DNA of 64,000 nt from a virus: positions 1 to 64,000 of IMG/VR virus record IMGVR_UViG_3300033149_004458. The stretch is one strand, 5' to 3'. Position 1 is the first letter of the stretch. Each line of letters starts with the position of its first letter. Positions 27,995 through 48,155 of the stretch are shown here, piece after piece. A program made the position numbers and the translations under genes. Below the pieces are notes generated by a model. That model made no database searches and was not told the origin of the DNA. It was given only the letters and a program-made list of their open reading frames with translations.

Positions 27995-28870
27995 TTACGG
28001 TGAGAATATTTCTCCTGTTGGTAATCGTTCTCCAGGACGAATTCTCCCAACATAGCGCCCCCTGACTTTTAACATGAACCATATACCTGTTTTACTTGTT
28101 CTTGCCTCTACGTGAACAGATGGTCCTGGAGATTCATAACGAACTTGGTCCAAAACTACAGGCACGCTCTCATTAGGGTTCTCAAACTGAAAACCTACAG
28201 CGTCTTCTATAGAGTGTACCATGTCCTCAGCAACGTCATCAAGAGCCTCGCTTACTATAGCAGGTACTTCTGCGCGCACCTTAGAGATGAACCCAGTACC
28301 TGCAAATGATGGATATGCTGGCGCTCCACTGGCATTACCATACTCTAGAAAAATCCAATAAGGAGCTTTTGTGCCCCAGGCATCAAGTCTTGCTTTAATT
28401 ACTTCTTCATATGTAGGAAGTTCCTCAAAGCTAACTGATTTGTTTTTCTTGGTAACAAATGCCCTTGGGCCACCCTCTCTGGCCGGCTTATATATTCCGA
28501 ACATCCACACAAAGAGGTTTTGCTCTGGTGTCCCGGTGCCTGGCCCACCTCCAGCAATTTGCCCCTCCAGAATATCACTCGGCATACCTGCTATCTGCTC
28601 GTTAAATACTTTGGCTCCCCTTAAATCTGGGGATACATAATAATGTTCCCAGTTGAGTAAATTTTCCATTAGTCGCTCTTCAAGAGGGGGGTATTGAAAC
28701 TCCTCAATGGTATTAATTGCCTCCTCTGCCATCTTTAGCATGTAATCTCGAATTCTGCTTTCTGCTAGATATTTGGCATTTGATCTAATGGCACTATCAA
28801 TATTCATCGTGTCAAATTGAGAGCCAAAATATATAAAACGGTCTAGTTCGTTCAATACGTCTTCTAACAT
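27995..28870 (-). CDS. neck/tail completion-like protein (291 aa)
   Basis: APYWIFLEYG motif reminiscent of HK97 gp10-like proteins; synteny. Confidence 0.55.
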   Translation of the reverse strand: MLEDVLNELDRFIYFGSQFDTMNIDSAIRSNAKYLAESRIRDYMLKMAEEAINTIEEFQYPPLEERLMENLLNWEHYYVSPDLRGAKVFNEQIAGMPSDILEGQIAGGGPGTGTPEQNLFVWMFGIYKPAREGGPRAFVTKKNKSVSFEELPTYEEVIKARLDAWGTKAPYWIFLEYGNASGAPAYPSFAGTGFISKVRAEVPAIVSEALDDVAEDMVHSIEDAVGFQFENPNESVPVVLDQVRYESPGPSVHVEARTSKTGIWFMLKVRGRYVGRIRPGERLPTGEIFSP

Positions 28871-42885: not shown

Positions 42886-43068
42886 TTAATGATAGAGAAC
42901 GTCTTTGGCAACAAGGTAAAGCCAAACGATTAGCATAAAAGCCACACTAAGTACAACTCTAAGTGAAACACTAGCAACTTTAACACAACTAAGTAAAATG
43001 TAAACAAGAGCCCCACAAAGAATGGCTATAAAACATCTTGCAAATGTTGCTATAACTTCTGCATCCAT
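42886..43068 (-). CDS. small two-TM membrane protein
   Basis: SD GGGAG; two hydrophobic segments. Confidence 0.6.
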   Translation of the reverse strand: MDAEVIATFARCFIAILCGALVYILLSCVKVASVSLRVVLSVAFMLIVWLYLVAKDVLYH

Positions 43069-43978: not shown

Positions 43979-44090
43979 TGCTCTTCCTGACTTTATTATA
44001 GGTAAATACTAAAAGTAGTCCAACTAAAATAAAAGCAACAAATAAAGCAATAAGGGCAATATAGTCAAACTGAATGATTAAAGCTAACAT
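43938..44090 (-). CDS. single-TM micro-protein (50 aa)
   Basis: MLALIIQFDYIALIALFVAFILVGLLLVFTYNK...; fills the operon gap. Confidence 0.5.
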   Translation of the reverse strand: MLALIIQFDYIALIALFVAFILVGLLLVFTYNKVRKSIDGLQEDHKIYRC

Positions 44091-44308
44091 AATTTATCTT
44101 GTTCCCTCGCTATATTACTTTGCGCAAGCAAATTTAACATTTCGCGCAACTGCTGAATGAGAGTATAAACATCTCCAGCTTTTAAAGTAACAAACCTTTC
44201 AATTTTGCCGGTTTCTTCACCTATTATGAAACTAATAAATCCAAGTGCGTCGGTATCCACAGTAAGTTTGTTACCATATATTCCACTATATATTATTTTT
44301 GACATCAT
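44084..44308 (-). CDS. hypothetical protein
   Basis: TAATG coupling to the RNA ligase gene. Confidence 0.7.
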   Translation of the reverse strand: MMSKIIYSGIYGNKLTVDTDALGFISFIIGEETGKIERFVTLKAGDVYTLIQQLREMLNLLAQSNIAREQDKLC

Positions 44309-45207
44309 TATCTCCCATCAAAGATTTCCGGTAGAAGTCGCTTTACCTCCTCGATGGTACTAGAATAAAAGAAGCGAAAATTTATTGTTACGTTTCCATA
44401 CGATTTCAAAATATTCCACATCTCTTCAGTGATAATCTCGTGCCAAACACGACCAAACAGCTCTGGGATTCGCTTACGTGAGAATGGGCCGGTTTCTCTC
44501 ATTTTAGCTAAAACCTTGTTTAGTCTTGCCTCTGTAACAAATTCCTGAGCTAGTTTGTGTTCAAGGGGGGACATTTGTGCCCGTGGCAGGCCAAAATTAT
44601 TAATATGCTTCTCTCTAAACTCATTTCTCACAAGCTTCGCCCAGACTGTTCTACCATAGTTATTTTTAAAACCATATCTCTTTACAACAATTCCCTCTCC
44701 ACTACCTTTGCCATCCTCAATCAGAAAAGTATTAGAACTCAGCAACTTGACAAGATGTTCTTCTGTTGGGTTATCAACAATCTCTATTGGCGGAATAAAA
44801 TCAACTCCGTATTCTTGTAAGGCTTCTATGTATTCATAATATGGGAGATATTCTTCTCTAGCATCATCAAAGACATCAAAAACATAAAAATGTTTCCATG
44901 CATCTTCTCTATACGTTTTAAGAGTATGCGGAACCAACCATTCTCCATATAGTCTCCAAGAAGGCTTATCAGAGAATAACGCGAGAAGCCGTTTTTCCAT
45001 TGGCGAAGATAAAACAAAGTCTAAAAATCCTGCGTTATCTTTCTCTAGTGTCAGCTCCCGTTTTCTACTTCCTGCATGTAGCTTCCCATTATACCAAACT
45101 GAGGCATTGGTGCCATCTATTTTAGGGAATATATAGCATGTTCCAACATTTATTCCTGCAACCTCATCAAGACCAAATCGCTCAATGTGCATATATGGCT
45201 TAAACAT
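44308..45207 (-). CDS. ATP-dependent RNA ligase, Rnl2-like
   Basis: Motif I KIDGTN, LYGEW, FYVFD, GEGIVVK, WAK...EFRE; helical C-terminal domain. Confidence 0.85.
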   Translation of the reverse strand: MFKPYMHIERFGLDEVAGINVGTCYIFPKIDGTNASVWYNGKLHAGSRKRELTLEKDNAGFLDFVLSSPMEKRLLALFSDKPSWRLYGEWLVPHTLKTYREDAWKHFYVFDVFDDAREEYLPYYEYIEALQEYGVDFIPPIEIVDNPTEEHLVKLLSSNTFLIEDGKGSGEGIVVKRYGFKNNYGRTVWAKLVRNEFREKHINNFGLPRAQMSPLEHKLAQEFVTEARLNKVLAKMRETGPFSRKRIPELFGRVWHEIITEEMWNILKSYGNVTINFRFFYSSTIEEVKRLLPEIFDGR

Positions 45208-45239
45208 TATCCTTGCCTCATTTCTAGAGTAAGCATATC

Positions 45240-45533
45240 TCAGTATGGGTATCTTTTCTGTTCTTTCTCAGCAATTTCATCTTCTATATCTGTTGCTTGT
45301 TCTCCTAGAATCTCATGTCTAAGCCTGATAAAAGCTCTCTCTGGAACAGTGTGCCCACGCTTAAGATGTTCCTGAAGATGCTCATACGCTTCCTCTAAAG
45401 ACGTAAAGACAGAATTCCATGTTTTTCCTTGGCGCTGGTCTTCTATAAGAATAAGACACATCTGACAGACAATAGTGCCGTCGACACTGGGATACATATA
45501 AACATCCCCCTCGCTAAATCTACAGTATGACAT
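45240..45533 (-). CDS. hypothetical phage protein
   Basis: MSYCRFS..DVY.Y; SD GAGGAG. Confidence 0.75.
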   Translation of the reverse strand: MSYCRFSEGDVYMYPSVDGTIVCQMCLILIEDQRQGKTWNSVFTSLEEAYEHLQEHLKRGHTVPERAFIRLRHEILGEQATDIEDEIAEKEQKRYPY

Positions 45534-45597
45534 ATTGCTCCTCTCTTGTTTAATGATAAAATTCTTGGTGCCTGTATTTCTCTCCTAATCTATTTCC

Positions 45598-45626
45598 ATT
45601 ATAGCAAATGGTAAGATTTTTGTCAA
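45598..45626 (-). promoter_or_regulatory. consensus sigma70 promoter
   Basis: TTGACA-17-TATAAT with TG extension. Confidence 0.9.
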
Positions 45627-45693
45627 GTTAGTTCAACCATAAGATTTCTTCGTTGTTATTAGTCAGTGAGAAGTTATCCTTTTGTCTTTCGAC

Positions 45694-45891
45694 TCATTTC
45701 AGTTCACGCTCCACCTGTTCTGAGGATAGCTTTGGAAGAGTGTCGCACAATGTATCAGGAACACACGGTGTTGTCTTTAGCCCTCCCCGCTCGCTATGTT
45801 CAAGCCTATATGATATCCAGCATCCTGTGGCAACCGCGATCAAGACAGCTCCTAGTATCAATATTCCTATCCAGGCAGAAATCATTTCCAT
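45694..45891 (-). CDS. small membrane-anchored protein
   Basis: SD AAAGGAG; N-terminal TM; own promoter. Confidence 0.7.
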   Translation of the reverse strand: MEMISAWIGILILGAVLIAVATGCWISYRLEHSERGGLKTTPCVPDTLCDTLPKLSSEQVERELK

Positions 45892-45923
45892 TCTTTCTAA
45901 ACTCCTTTCCTTGAATCATTTTC

Positions 45924-45952
45924 ATTTTATCATGTGATGAAATTTTTGTCAA
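45924..45952 (-). promoter_or_regulatory. sigma70 promoter
   Basis: TTGACA-17-TAAAAT with TG extension. Confidence 0.85.
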
Positions 45953-45985
45953 GCCAAACCAACCGTTTTTCTTTATTGCTACAGA

Positions 45986-46057
45986 CGAGAGAGCCAGGGA
46001 TCGAACCTAGATCTCTGATTTTGGAGACCAGTATTTTGCCGATTAAACTACTCTCTC
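45986..46057 (-). tRNA. tRNA-Trp (CCA anticodon), 3' CCA not encoded
   Basis: Acceptor GAGAGAG/CTCTCTC, D arm GTTT/AAAT, anticodon arm CTGGT-CTCCAAA-ATCAG, T arm CTAGG-TTCGATC-CCTGG. Confidence 0.92.
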
Positions 46058-46281
46058 TTAGTCTAATACGAAGGGGCAATACTCATAAGTCCTGCTCACC
46101 CATGTCAGTGGAGGTGTGAGGAATCGAACCTCAGTTTCCAAGACAACATATGTCATCTTAGAACGAACCCTTTCACCCCCGACTTAATTGTGTCTATTTA
46201 AAACTCTTCTTTCACTTCGCACAACTCTTTTACTTTTCCTGTTTAAATAGCTGCTTGAGATAAGCTACTCTCTCTTAGTTT
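46044..46281. repeat. direct repeat pair (15-bp exact core) flanking the mini-tmRNA
   Basis: CTACTCTCTCTTAGT at 46048-46062 and 46265-46279; 19/21 identity when extended. Confidence 0.8.
46109..46180 (-). ncRNA. mini-tmRNA: tRNA-like domain only, no tag reading frame
   Basis: GGGGGTG/CACCTCC acceptor with G3-U70 and discriminator A; stemless D loop AAAGGGTTCG; 12-bp closed helix; AC linker; T arm TGAGG-TTCGATT-CCTCA. Confidence 0.75.
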
Positions 46282-46495
46282 GTCCAAACAACGATGTTCT
46301 TACGCTTTGATACGCATCCAAATAATAAACGGCCCACTTAACGCCATGCTCCTTAGCGGCTCTCCAGTAATCAATGCACTCATCAAGATACCTTTTTACG
46401 GCCTCTTCGGTGAGCTCAATCTTCTTGGTCACTGGTTCCGTCCCCGCATCTTTTCTTCCTCTGATTCCTATATCTAGTCCTACCATCAGTGGCAT
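46265..46495 (-). CDS. hypothetical protein
   Basis: YLDECI..WR...YYLDAYQSVR.SLFG; start uncertain. Confidence 0.65.
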   Translation of the reverse strand: MPLMVGLDIGIRGRKDAGTEPVTKKIELTEEAVKRYLDECIDYWRAAKEHGVKWAVYYLDAYQSVRTSLFGQTKRE

Positions 46496-46626
46496 CTCTT
46501 AAACCAGCCATAACGCCACTTGACGACCACAAGTGGTGTCCATTTATATCCTTTCAGGTAAATGCGTTCGCGGATAAAGTAAGAACCATGCGCACTACAC
46601 CATTTGCCGAATGATAACCAAATCAT
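46486..46626 (-). CDS. hypothetical micro-protein (46 aa)
   Basis: SD GGGAGGT; MIWLSFGKWCSAHG... Confidence 0.55.
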   Translation of the reverse strand: MIWLSFGKWCSAHGSYFIRERIYLKGYKWTPLVVVKWRYGWFKRCH

Positions 46627-46647
46627 TATTACCTCCCAACTCTTATA

Positions 46648-46881
46648 TCACAGACCGCGCTCCAGGAGTGCTAATCCATCCCTCAAGATAAAGGCCCGAC
46701 CAGTAACGTCTTTGAGCAGCGTATCAATTCTCGCTAGAGCAGTATAGCGCAGCTGTTGGTCAGACACTTCAAGATCACATGGCCCTATGATGCCCTCCAA
46801 GTGGTTTATTGCATGGACCAGCAGGGAATTAATCTCTTCGAGCCTATCCGTGATTTTCTCTGTTGTTCCGTTATCTGCCAT
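46648..46881 (-). CDS. hypothetical protein
   Basis: SD AGGGAG. Confidence 0.7.
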   Translation of the reverse strand: MADNGTTEKITDRLEEINSLLVHAINHLEGIIGPCDLEVSDQQLRYTALARIDTLLKDVTGRAFILRDGLALLERGL

Positions 46882-46893
46882 TTTACTCTCCCT

Positions 46894-47334
46894 TTATGAT
46901 TTTTGTGTCTCTTTATGTCTACTCACAACGCCCCGTTCTGGTCGGCGGGCATCGTTGAAACCCCTGGTATATGCTCGATCTATATCCTCGCACCAGCTAC
47001 AATATCGTGTGCCATCATCTCGTAGTTTCTCAGCAATATGTGGATGACCACATGGCATCGGTCTAAACCACTTAGAGAGCTCCTCGATATATGCTGCCAT
47101 TTGCTGTATAGCATCAACCGGATTGCGAAAAGCGGTATAGATACCCGCAATATCACAAGCATCTAGAGCTTGTTCGATTTTAGTTGATTCCTCGCGGTAG
47201 TGCTGAATTGTATCATCCAGACGCCGTTGCAGCTCCTCACATTGTCCCACTAGACCAGTGACTATCCCAACCCAATCAACATGGGCCTCTAGACAAATCC
47301 ACCTTTGAAGATCATTAAGTAACTCGCTGTTCAT
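46894..47334 (-). CDS. hypothetical coiled-coil/Zn-finger protein
   Basis: PCGHP...YCSWC; SD AGGAG. Confidence 0.7.
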   Translation of the reverse strand: MNSELLNDLQRWICLEAHVDWVGIVTGLVGQCEELQRRLDDTIQHYREESTKIEQALDACDIAGIYTAFRNPVDAIQQMAAYIEELSKWFRPMPCGHPHIAEKLRDDGTRYCSWCEDIDRAYTRGFNDARRPERGVVSRHKETQKS

Positions 47335-47374
47335 TGTACTTCTCCTATCCACCCGGTTATTTACGACCAACCAC

Positions 47375-47551
47375 TCATTTTGCGTACTTTCTCTGTCTTT
47401 TCCTCTCCGTTCCTGTTAAACACCCTGCTATCAGTCTGGCCTTATCCATCAATTCGCCCGCGTCGATACAGTGAGGATTCCAATATCCCAACCTGACCAG
47501 CGCACGCACCCATGTATCAAATATGTAATACTGTATTTTTCTCGTCGTCAT
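47375..47551 (-). CDS. hypothetical protein (58 aa)
   Basis: MTTRKIQYYIFDTW...; SD GGGG. Confidence 0.5.
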   Translation of the reverse strand: MTTRKIQYYIFDTWVRALVRLGYWNPHCIDAGELMDKARLIAGCLTGTERKRQRKYAK

Positions 47552-47580
47552 TTTATCCCCAATGTCGTTGGCGTCAGCAA

Positions 47581-47808
47581 TTACCCCTCATCTACTTTAC
47601 ACAACTTCAGTGCCTCTTCCAAAGGATACAGCGTCTCTACGCCGTCAGCATTGATCTTGTAGCAACGCATTGCCTTCTGTCCATCGAAGCCACAGATACG
47701 GCACACATTGTCTCGTTCCCAGGCAGCAGAGATCGATGCAGCGATCACAGCAGTAGCAATTAGTATCCATGCCAGGCCCAGAAGCAAAGCGGCTCCAAAC
47801 CTCTTCAT
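47581..47808 (-). CDS. small secreted or membrane-anchored Cys-rich protein
   Basis: SD GGAGGAGG; MKRFGAALLLGLAW signal-like N-terminus. Confidence 0.65.
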   Translation of the reverse strand: MKRFGAALLLGLAWILIATAVIAASISAAWERDNVCRICGFDGQKAMRCYKINADGVETLYPLEEALKLCKVDEG

Positions 47809-48155
47809 TCTCTTACTTCCTCCTCCGCCAATTCCGCCCGTGTCCAAACACCACCAGCAAAAAGTGCCTTGTCAAATGGTGGCGGCTTTTGGCAAGGGCT
47901 ACGGTAGATACACCACATAGTAGGACTAACCCACACGCAAATGGAACATGCGGAGTGTACGTCTCTAATAGCATGACATAAGGTTAATGACAATCGCCGA
48001 TGTCTCCATAGCCATAACCAATCGTGCCAATGCCGCAAGGATTCTCTCCAGCGGGAAAGACATTCACTTATTCGAGCCACAATTACAACTATTAATAAGA
48101 TAAGTAGTATACCAGGCCAGCCATAACAACATAATTTCCAACATCTAAATCCCCT

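Follow-up and report, generated by a model that had tools for sequence, protein, structure and literature searches.

A 72-nt element on the minus strand of the window, the stretch of 64,000 nucleotides analysed here and the first 64 kb of the 80,112-bp IMG/VR record IMGVR_UViG_3300033149_004458, is with high confidence a genuine member of the family of tmRNA genes of the type found in Mycobacterium phage DS6A, which consist of the tRNA-like domain (TLD) only. By analogy with known TLDs, the encoded RNA probably accepts alanine and has host SmpB as its partner. It may thereby act as a competitor of host tmRNA, a mechanism that we propose tentatively and hold at a little under even odds; a blend of the confidence in family membership and of that in the competitor mechanism comes to 0.6. 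The TLD-only kind of phage tmRNA has been published for one phage, DS6A, and is present in the tmRNA database, and the window adds a member with a simplified arm.

Architecture and detection of the element

The element spans seven acceptor pairs, a stemless D-loop analogue, a single long hairpin and a T arm, which are arranged as follows.

46109-46180, minus strand: TLD-only mini-tmRNA gene, 72 nt, CCA not encoded
46174-46180, minus strand: 5′ strand of the acceptor stem, GGGGGUG, including G3 of the G3-U70 pair; pairs checked by script
46164-46173, minus strand: stemless D-loop analogue AAAGGGUUCG, positions 8-17, unpaired and containing GG
46136-46163, minus strand: helix 2 analogue, a 12-bp hairpin with an AUAU loop that occupies the place of the anticodon arm
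46134-46135, minus strand: AC linker preceding the T arm, its A invariant and its C nearly so in the family alignment
46117-46133, minus strand: T arm UGAGG/UUCGAUU/CCUCA with a 5-bp stem; site of a weak Rfam match to beta_tmRNA and tmRNA_permuted
46109-46116, minus strand: 3′ strand of the acceptor stem, CACCUCC, and discriminator A; pairs checked by script

The 72-nt minus-strand sequence and its fold read exactly as quoted in the original prediction, and a script confirmed every pair. In the acceptor, positions 1-7 pair with 65-71, and the element's G3-U69 is the canonical 3:70 pair while its discriminator A72 is the canonical A73. The helix 2 analogue pairs 18-29 with 34-45, with four of its 12 pairs being G-U or U-G, and A46 may, to judge from the sequence, face G17 as a G-A pair. 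All 24 base pairs are intact, as are the T-loop, the D-loop GG, G3-U70 and A73. The bases that follow the discriminator are CUG, so no CCA is encoded. Between the two TLD halves there is a 28-nt hairpin only, which leaves no resume codon, tag frame or pseudoknots; the parts retained from tmRNA are the acceptor stem, the D-loop analogue, the base of helix 2 and the T arm. The TLD fold has a free energy of -29.0 kcal/mol, compared with an unconstrained minimum (MFE) of -32.0, and the MFE lies at a z-score of -4.6 relative to 200 shuffled sequences, none of which (0/200) folded as well.

Standard models do not call this RNA. ARAGORN reports no tmRNA, tag peptide or tRNA on the element and calls the neighbouring tRNA-Trp alone, and Rfam at gathering thresholds likewise finds the tRNA-Trp and nothing else. 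With permissive Rfam settings, the T arm and the acceptor 3′ strand alone are matched by beta_tmRNA (16.4 bits, threshold 84) and tmRNA_permuted (15.9 bits, threshold 47). The Rfam and ARAGORN check proposed in the original prediction gave no call by ARAGORN or at Rfam gathering thresholds, and a weak match of about 16 bits to two permuted-tmRNA models. The organellar tmRNA models of Rfam give no match to the element at E up to 10. A better fit to a standard tRNA model, which the original prediction had regarded as the outcome that would speak against it, was not found: ARAGORN is silent, the element does not reach the RF00005 gathering score of 29 bits, and no tRNA-clan model is at threshold. 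Within 46088-46108 (minus strand), a GGGUGA located 8 nt past the discriminator is aligned by the permuted-tmRNA models as a two-piece 5′ strand (16 bits in total). This resemblance, which may be due to chance, was too weak to be retained as the remnant of a two-piece (permuted) ancestor, and that candidate was set aside.

The covariance model R2, built from 67 look-alikes in other viral contigs with the window left out, assigns the element 66.5 bits (E 3.7e-12), a score that is partly circular because the acceptor and T-arm letters of the window itself served to gather the training set. R2 has no other strong match in the window or anywhere else in the 80-kb genome, finds no second copy there and gives the neighbouring tRNA-Trp 16.6 bits.

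A viral family of TLD-only genes and its known relatives

The family was collected from IMG/VR in three pattern scans. The first, which specified the acceptor and T-arm letters of the window and left a free interior of 45-62 nt, returned at least 120 matches; among the matches listed are 67 distinct RNAs of 74-87 nt that are built like the element, plus a few tRNA-Ala genes. The true phage tRNA-Ala genes with the window's acceptor recovered by this pattern look quite different. In the second scan, UUCGAC, GGAC and the T-loop were fixed and the acceptor was left free, and almost all loci were new relative to the first. Here 69 of the 78 distinct matches have a perfect local 7-bp acceptor, and 24 different acceptor 5′ strands occur, with G3-U70 in 70/71 and the discriminator A in 71/71 (all counts among the matches listed). 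The AlaRS identity elements named in the original prediction, G3-U70 and A73, are thus present in the window and conserved where the pattern left them free; because they stay fixed while the acceptor is free to vary, chargeability is taken to be under selection in the family. The third scan, for shorter interiors, recovered forms of about 63-72 nt with a plain hairpin like that of the window in unrelated contigs, one of which is 69 nt long and starts with GGGGGUGAAAGGAUUCGAC. When the three scans are pooled and duplicates and true tRNAs are removed, the family comprises at least 148 distinct elements in at least 231 loci, with a length range of 63-87 nt and a mode of 79 nt, compared with 72 nt in the window. 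ARAGORN is silent on 225 of the 239 collected sequences.

Alignment of the 67 sequences from the first scan to the covariance model places standard pairs in 96% of the pair cells, against 71% for shuffled sequences and at most 60% when pairing partners are slid. In this alignment double-sided changes are seen at all 7 modelled helix-2 pairs and at 3 T-stem pairs, and acceptor pairs 4-7 also covary in the family. The search for viral homologues with covarying helices suggested in the original prediction thus yielded both the homologues and the covariation, in helix 2, the T stem and the acceptor. A D-loop consensus, GG.UU.GAC, emerges in the first-scan set from a stretch that the pattern had left free, and in the linker of the family alignment A46 is invariant and C47 is present in at least 90% of sequences.

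In the majority of members a 7-bp helix is followed by a purine-rich internal loop and a small apical hairpin. The hairpin takes the form CCN-CAYG-NGG in 66 of the 148 distinct members (about 45%, among the matches listed), with a covarying stem, a conserved loop and a purine-rich internal loop preceding it (e.g. L126:1579-1657 and DS6A), and it is a mark of a subclass, not of the whole family. The window element has neither this hairpin nor the internal loop, and in their place carries one unbroken 12-bp helix. Its junction reads UUCGUU...AAAC where the family has UUCGAC...GGAC, such that one presumed G-A/A-G layer becomes a U-A pair, while the final AC and the possible G17-A46 pair are kept; several members of the first-scan set also lack the GAC.

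The loose pattern was also run on 185,579 bacterial and archaeal species, each represented by one genome. Among the matches listed, these are mostly the 3′ ends of ordinary tmRNA genes, and prophage-borne copies in bacterial genomes were therefore set aside as a candidate. A local 7-bp acceptor occurs in 3/120 of the cellular matches as against 69/78 of the viral ones, again among the matches listed, and this difference argues that the compact form is a phage trait.

The closest published counterpart is that of DS6A, which is listed with a "TLD only" tmRNA by Hudson, Lau & Williams (2014, PMC4131195). It is the only natural phage case named in the literature searched and is given one sentence there (PMC4131195); a 2025 tmRNA database paper repeats it and adds tag-less plastid forms of about 65 bp (PMC11915505). 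As precedent for tag-less forms the original prediction cited protist mitochondria alone; it overlooked the phage case already present in both papers and overstated the novelty. On the DS6A genome (JN698994), R2 finds exactly one site, at 28478-28557 (58.1 bits), which is intergenic between gp33 and gp34, 80 nt long and of an interior typical of the family. The DS6A element (tmRNA Website tmID 11587) and that of the window are alike in having an acceptor of 7 bp that includes G3-U70, an A as discriminator, a GG-containing D-loop without a stem, a hairpin-closed helix 2 and a canonical T arm; neither encodes CCA, neither is annotated in its record, and one model, R2, detects both. They differ in the interior, where DS6A has a GAC...CAC junction, a helix of 6-7 bp, an internal loop GAAAA and, at the apex, the hairpin CCGCACGCGG within its 80 nt, whereas the window element has a GUU...AAAC junction, a continuous 12-bp helix and an AUAU loop within 72 nt. 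The acceptor 5′ strands also differ (GGGGCCG in DS6A and GGGGGUG in the window), and the DS6A host is Mycobacterium. The literature search, while not proof of absence, found no description of the family's breadth, of its position in the head module or of cultured Streptomyces phages as carriers, and the term "mini-tmRNA" was not found in the literature searched.

A link to complete tmRNAs is provided by the 5′ end. The first 17 nt of the window element, made up of the acceptor 5′ strand and the D-loop analogue, are identical to the 5′ ends of full-length tmRNAs in three other viral contigs (L435:517-865, L434:6534-6746 and L436:424-720), which Rfam recognises as one one-piece tmRNA (109 bits, tag ANDGIYDNSYALAA) and two permuted ones (99 and 89 bits). 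They also have CACCUCC as acceptor 3′ strand and UUCGAUU as T-loop in common with it. The full-length phage tmRNAs (RF00023; permuted forms RF04321, RF01849 and RF01850), of which phage Melnitz provides an example (PMC9004378), possess a tag frame, pseudoknots and scores above the Rfam gathering thresholds, all of which the window element lacks, and their interior is about 270 nt compared with its 28 nt. One and the same 17-nt 5′ end is thus common to three gene architectures, namely one-piece, permuted and TLD-only. Because of the 5′ identity with full-length tmRNAs and the match to DS6A and the family, the window element is considered tmRNA-derived rather than a crippled tRNA-Ala; these two lines of evidence, along with the AlaRS identity elements conserved in the family, support the proposal of the original prediction that it is a stand-alone TLD without a tag-coding domain. 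With tRNA-Ala it shares a T arm and a 7-bp acceptor that contains G3-U70 and is followed by an A as discriminator, and from these sequence features both should be AlaRS substrates, but a D stem is missing from the window element, as is an anticodon stem carrying a 7-nt loop and an NGC anticodon.

Two further groups of RNAs have a comparable design. Engineered TLD fragments are laboratory constructs of about 60-65 nt in which the 5′ and 3′ ends of a tmRNA are joined by a tetraloop, whereas the window element, of the same design, occurs naturally as a gene and has a longer helix 2. The crystallised Thermus TLD (PDB 2CZJ) is described as the 5′ 25 nt and 3′ 34 nt joined by UUCG (PMC3929946). Such fragments are reported to bind SmpB, become alanylated and enter the ribosome in vitro (Shimizu & Ueda 2006, as described in PMC3929946), and a TLD fragment together with SmpB to support template-free polyalanine synthesis in vitro (PMC3929946). 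Tag-less organellar tmRNAs are found in jakobid and oomycete mitochondria and as plastid forms of about 65 bp in Mallomonadaceae (PMC11915505). Like the window element they are reduced to little beyond the TLD, and they are presumed to be SmpB partners without a tag frame; they differ in being organelle-encoded and of another lineage, with an SmpB that is nucleus-encoded and organelle-targeted.

Gene neighbourhood and genome setting

In the window the element lies upstream of a tRNA gene and between two copies of a short repeat.

45986-46057, minus strand: tRNA-Trp with CCA anticodon (ARAGORN; Rfam tRNA, 62.2 bits), 51 nt downstream of the element
46044-46062, no strand assigned: copy 1 of a 19-nt direct repeat, comprising the 5′ end of the tRNA-Trp and 5 nt
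46261-46279, no strand assigned: second copy of this repeat, at the stop codon of a 76-aa ORF (46265-46495, minus strand), which it overlaps
44308-45207, minus strand: RNA ligase (Pfam RNA_ligase PF09414, E 6e-20), about 0.9 kb downstream of the element and given as context only

The tRNA-Trp is probably co-transcribed and co-processed with the element. No consensus promoter was found directly upstream of the element, and two strong promoter-like sites are both located downstream of the tRNA-Trp. Given the lack of a promoter just upstream, the element is most likely expressed by being transcribed along with the small ORFs that precede it and then processed in the manner of a tRNA. The two repeat copies that bracket the element are identical at 18 of 19 positions with a spacing of 217 nt, and appear to be what a local duplication or insertion left behind. 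Across the family, flanking direct repeats are no more frequent than at control positions, which ruled out a mobile cassette with a target-site duplication; because the family in general is not repeat-flanked, the repeat of the window is ascribed to local rearrangement. A weak metallophosphoesterase match also lies downstream, on the same strand as the RNA ligase. Relatives of the RNA ligase in 33 viral loci (at most 56% identity) are accompanied by no mini-tmRNA, and almost none by tRNAs.

The source genome has direct terminal repeats and is rated 100% complete in its IMG/VR record, and its large terminase (TerL) shares no more than 25% identity with that of any phage isolate. When the 2.5 kb surrounding the element were compared by blastn with 50,697 phage records, no match was obtained, and the element alone gave weak T-arm matches and nothing else in phage records; TerL and a 259-aa ORF of this phage found no relatives among viral contigs. 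A sister phage or close relative was thus not found by blastn or by way of TerL, the 259-aa ORF or the RNA ligase. Parts of 44000-45450 are identical to short contigs in two hydrothermal-vent metagenome runs from different studies, which is a weak hint of habitat. Over 44000-48000, contigs of two hydrothermal-vent DNA runs gave short, low-depth fits, none of them informative over the element.

Across the family the neighbourhoods are diverse, and the commonest order is prohead protease, element, major capsid protein (among the matches listed, as are the next three counts). An S78 protease lies directly upstream in 16/119 loci and an HK97-type capsid gene directly downstream in 17/120, and in about one fifth of the distinct loci the element is flanked, all on one strand, by a prohead protease or scaffold-like gene before it and the major capsid gene after it. 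Two unrelated head-module types show this order (examples are L002:2819-5518, L093, L082, L194, L115 and L121). For at least 15 of 89 relatives, a gap of 5-9 nt separates the stop codon of the preceding ORF from the element, and the start of the capsid gene is reached within about 30-120 nt on the other side. A conserved protein partner adjoining the element was sought and rejected, the neighbourhoods being too varied for any universal one. The gene directly downstream of the element encodes a peptidyl-tRNA hydrolase (PTH2, E 4e-27) in one family locus.

Cultured phages of Streptomyces carry the gene as well. LuckySocke (OR725497.1, 17977-18054; R2, 63.3 bits) and Shaeky (MT701595.1, about 42932-43010; R2, 60.5 bits) each have an unannotated element inside a tRNA array, and further unannotated members are present in GiJojo, pSt2308, Alone3, BRock and Riptide. 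In LuckySocke an RNA ligase gene lies 1.6 kb downstream of the element, and the window also has an RNA ligase downstream. An SmpB gene was found neither in the window phage nor in 42 further viral records that bear the element, of which 21 are at least 90% complete, and therefore any SmpB partner must come from the host.

Proposed competition with host tmRNA and its alternatives

Trans-translation is the main ribosome-rescue pathway of bacteria. Recognition of tmRNA by AlaRS is defined by G3-U70 and A73, the D-loop of the TLD is stemless, and SmpB binds the elbow of the TLD (PMC3968760). In the proposed competitor mechanism, the element would share a transcript with the small genes upstream and with the tRNA-Trp that follows, the RNA would be excised by host tRNA-processing enzymes and receive CCA, host AlaRS would charge it with alanine via G3-U70 and A73, and host SmpB would bind it. 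The alanylated TLD, with SmpB and EF-Tu, would then be a rival of host tmRNA for SmpB as well as for stalled ribosomes, with the outcome that nascent chains would gain alanine, perhaps several, without the ssrA degron, or that host trans-translation would be damped. Features that speak against this reading are the departures of the window copy from the family core, in its GUU...AAAC junction and its missing apical hairpin, and the lack of a consensus promoter directly upstream. That the charged RNA enters stalled ribosomes with host SmpB and EF-Tu and takes the nascent chain, leading to degron-free release or short template-free alanine tails, is suggested by the behaviour of the engineered fragments and is in our assessment possible though rather doubtful.

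A related possibility is that the RNA acts off the ribosome as a pure SmpB sponge, in which host SmpB, perhaps together with RNase R, would be sequestered and trans-translation shut down irrespective of charging. According to Mao et al. (2009), as cited in PMC4131195, a TLD-like molecule strongly inhibits E. coli tmRNA, perhaps via titration of SmpB, and does so whether or not it can be charged; this charge-independent inhibition leaves room for a sponge. The lack of a phage SmpB that could balance the extra RNA, in the window phage and the 42 other records, is in keeping with it, and the protease-capsid position of many relatives fits the high late expression that a stoichiometric sponge would need. 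A sponge would require neither G3-U70 nor A73, however, and both are nearly invariant while the remaining acceptor covaries; the 12-bp acceptor/T helix read by EF-Tu is also kept intact. We regard the sponge as unlikely, and action on the ribosome is favoured over pure SmpB titration, not strongly, because chargeability is conserved even though a sponge would not need it.

Both a functionless remnant and a tRNA-like role outside ribosome rescue are less likely than ribosome action or SmpB titration. A decaying remnant would have arisen as a deletion product of a full-length phage tmRNA, or by imprecise capture of a host ssrA end or an attP-type fragment. The 17-nt match to full-length phage tmRNAs, the loss from the window copy of two family motifs, the bracketing 19-nt duplication as a sign of recent rearrangement and the failure to find relatives that could show selection on this copy all fit such an origin. 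Yet the base pairs and tmRNA hallmarks of the element are intact throughout, an attP fragment would bring only the 3′ part of ssrA and no matching 5′ strand, short simple-hairpin forms recur in unrelated contigs, and covariation across the family is strong; as such, decay is highly improbable as an explanation. For a role outside rescue the RNA could serve as RNase P/Z punctuation of an mRNA, as a non-ribosomal alanyl donor or as bait for a tRNA-directed defence nuclease, the last envisaged in combination with the nearby RNA ligase and phosphoesterase. Excision from between a closely spaced upstream stop and a capsid gene, as arranged in the 15 or more of 89 relatives noted above, would define mRNA ends, and the RNA ligase recurs downstream in both the window and LuckySocke. 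Punctuation alone would nevertheless not fix G3-U70 and A73, the ligase relatives in 33 viral loci lack the element, there is no anticodon loop for known anticodon nucleases to act on, and in its D-loop and linker the element carries tmRNA motifs. These points make a non-rescue role the least probable of the explanations considered.

The TLD-only kind of tmRNA is widespread in phages yet unannotated, being missed by ARAGORN and by Rfam thresholds, and a small covariance model could let phage annotation pipelines catch these genes. To our knowledge, the handling of trans-translation by phages is poorly understood. In tractable phage-host pairs it is a testable question whether ribosome rescue is blocked or is run without a degradation tag. 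If the charged RNA does enter stalled ribosomes and take over nascent chains, phages would rewrite the outcome of host quality control during heavy late translation; such a role would fit the frequent place of the element between the prohead protease and major capsid genes, and might counter defence systems that stall ribosomes.
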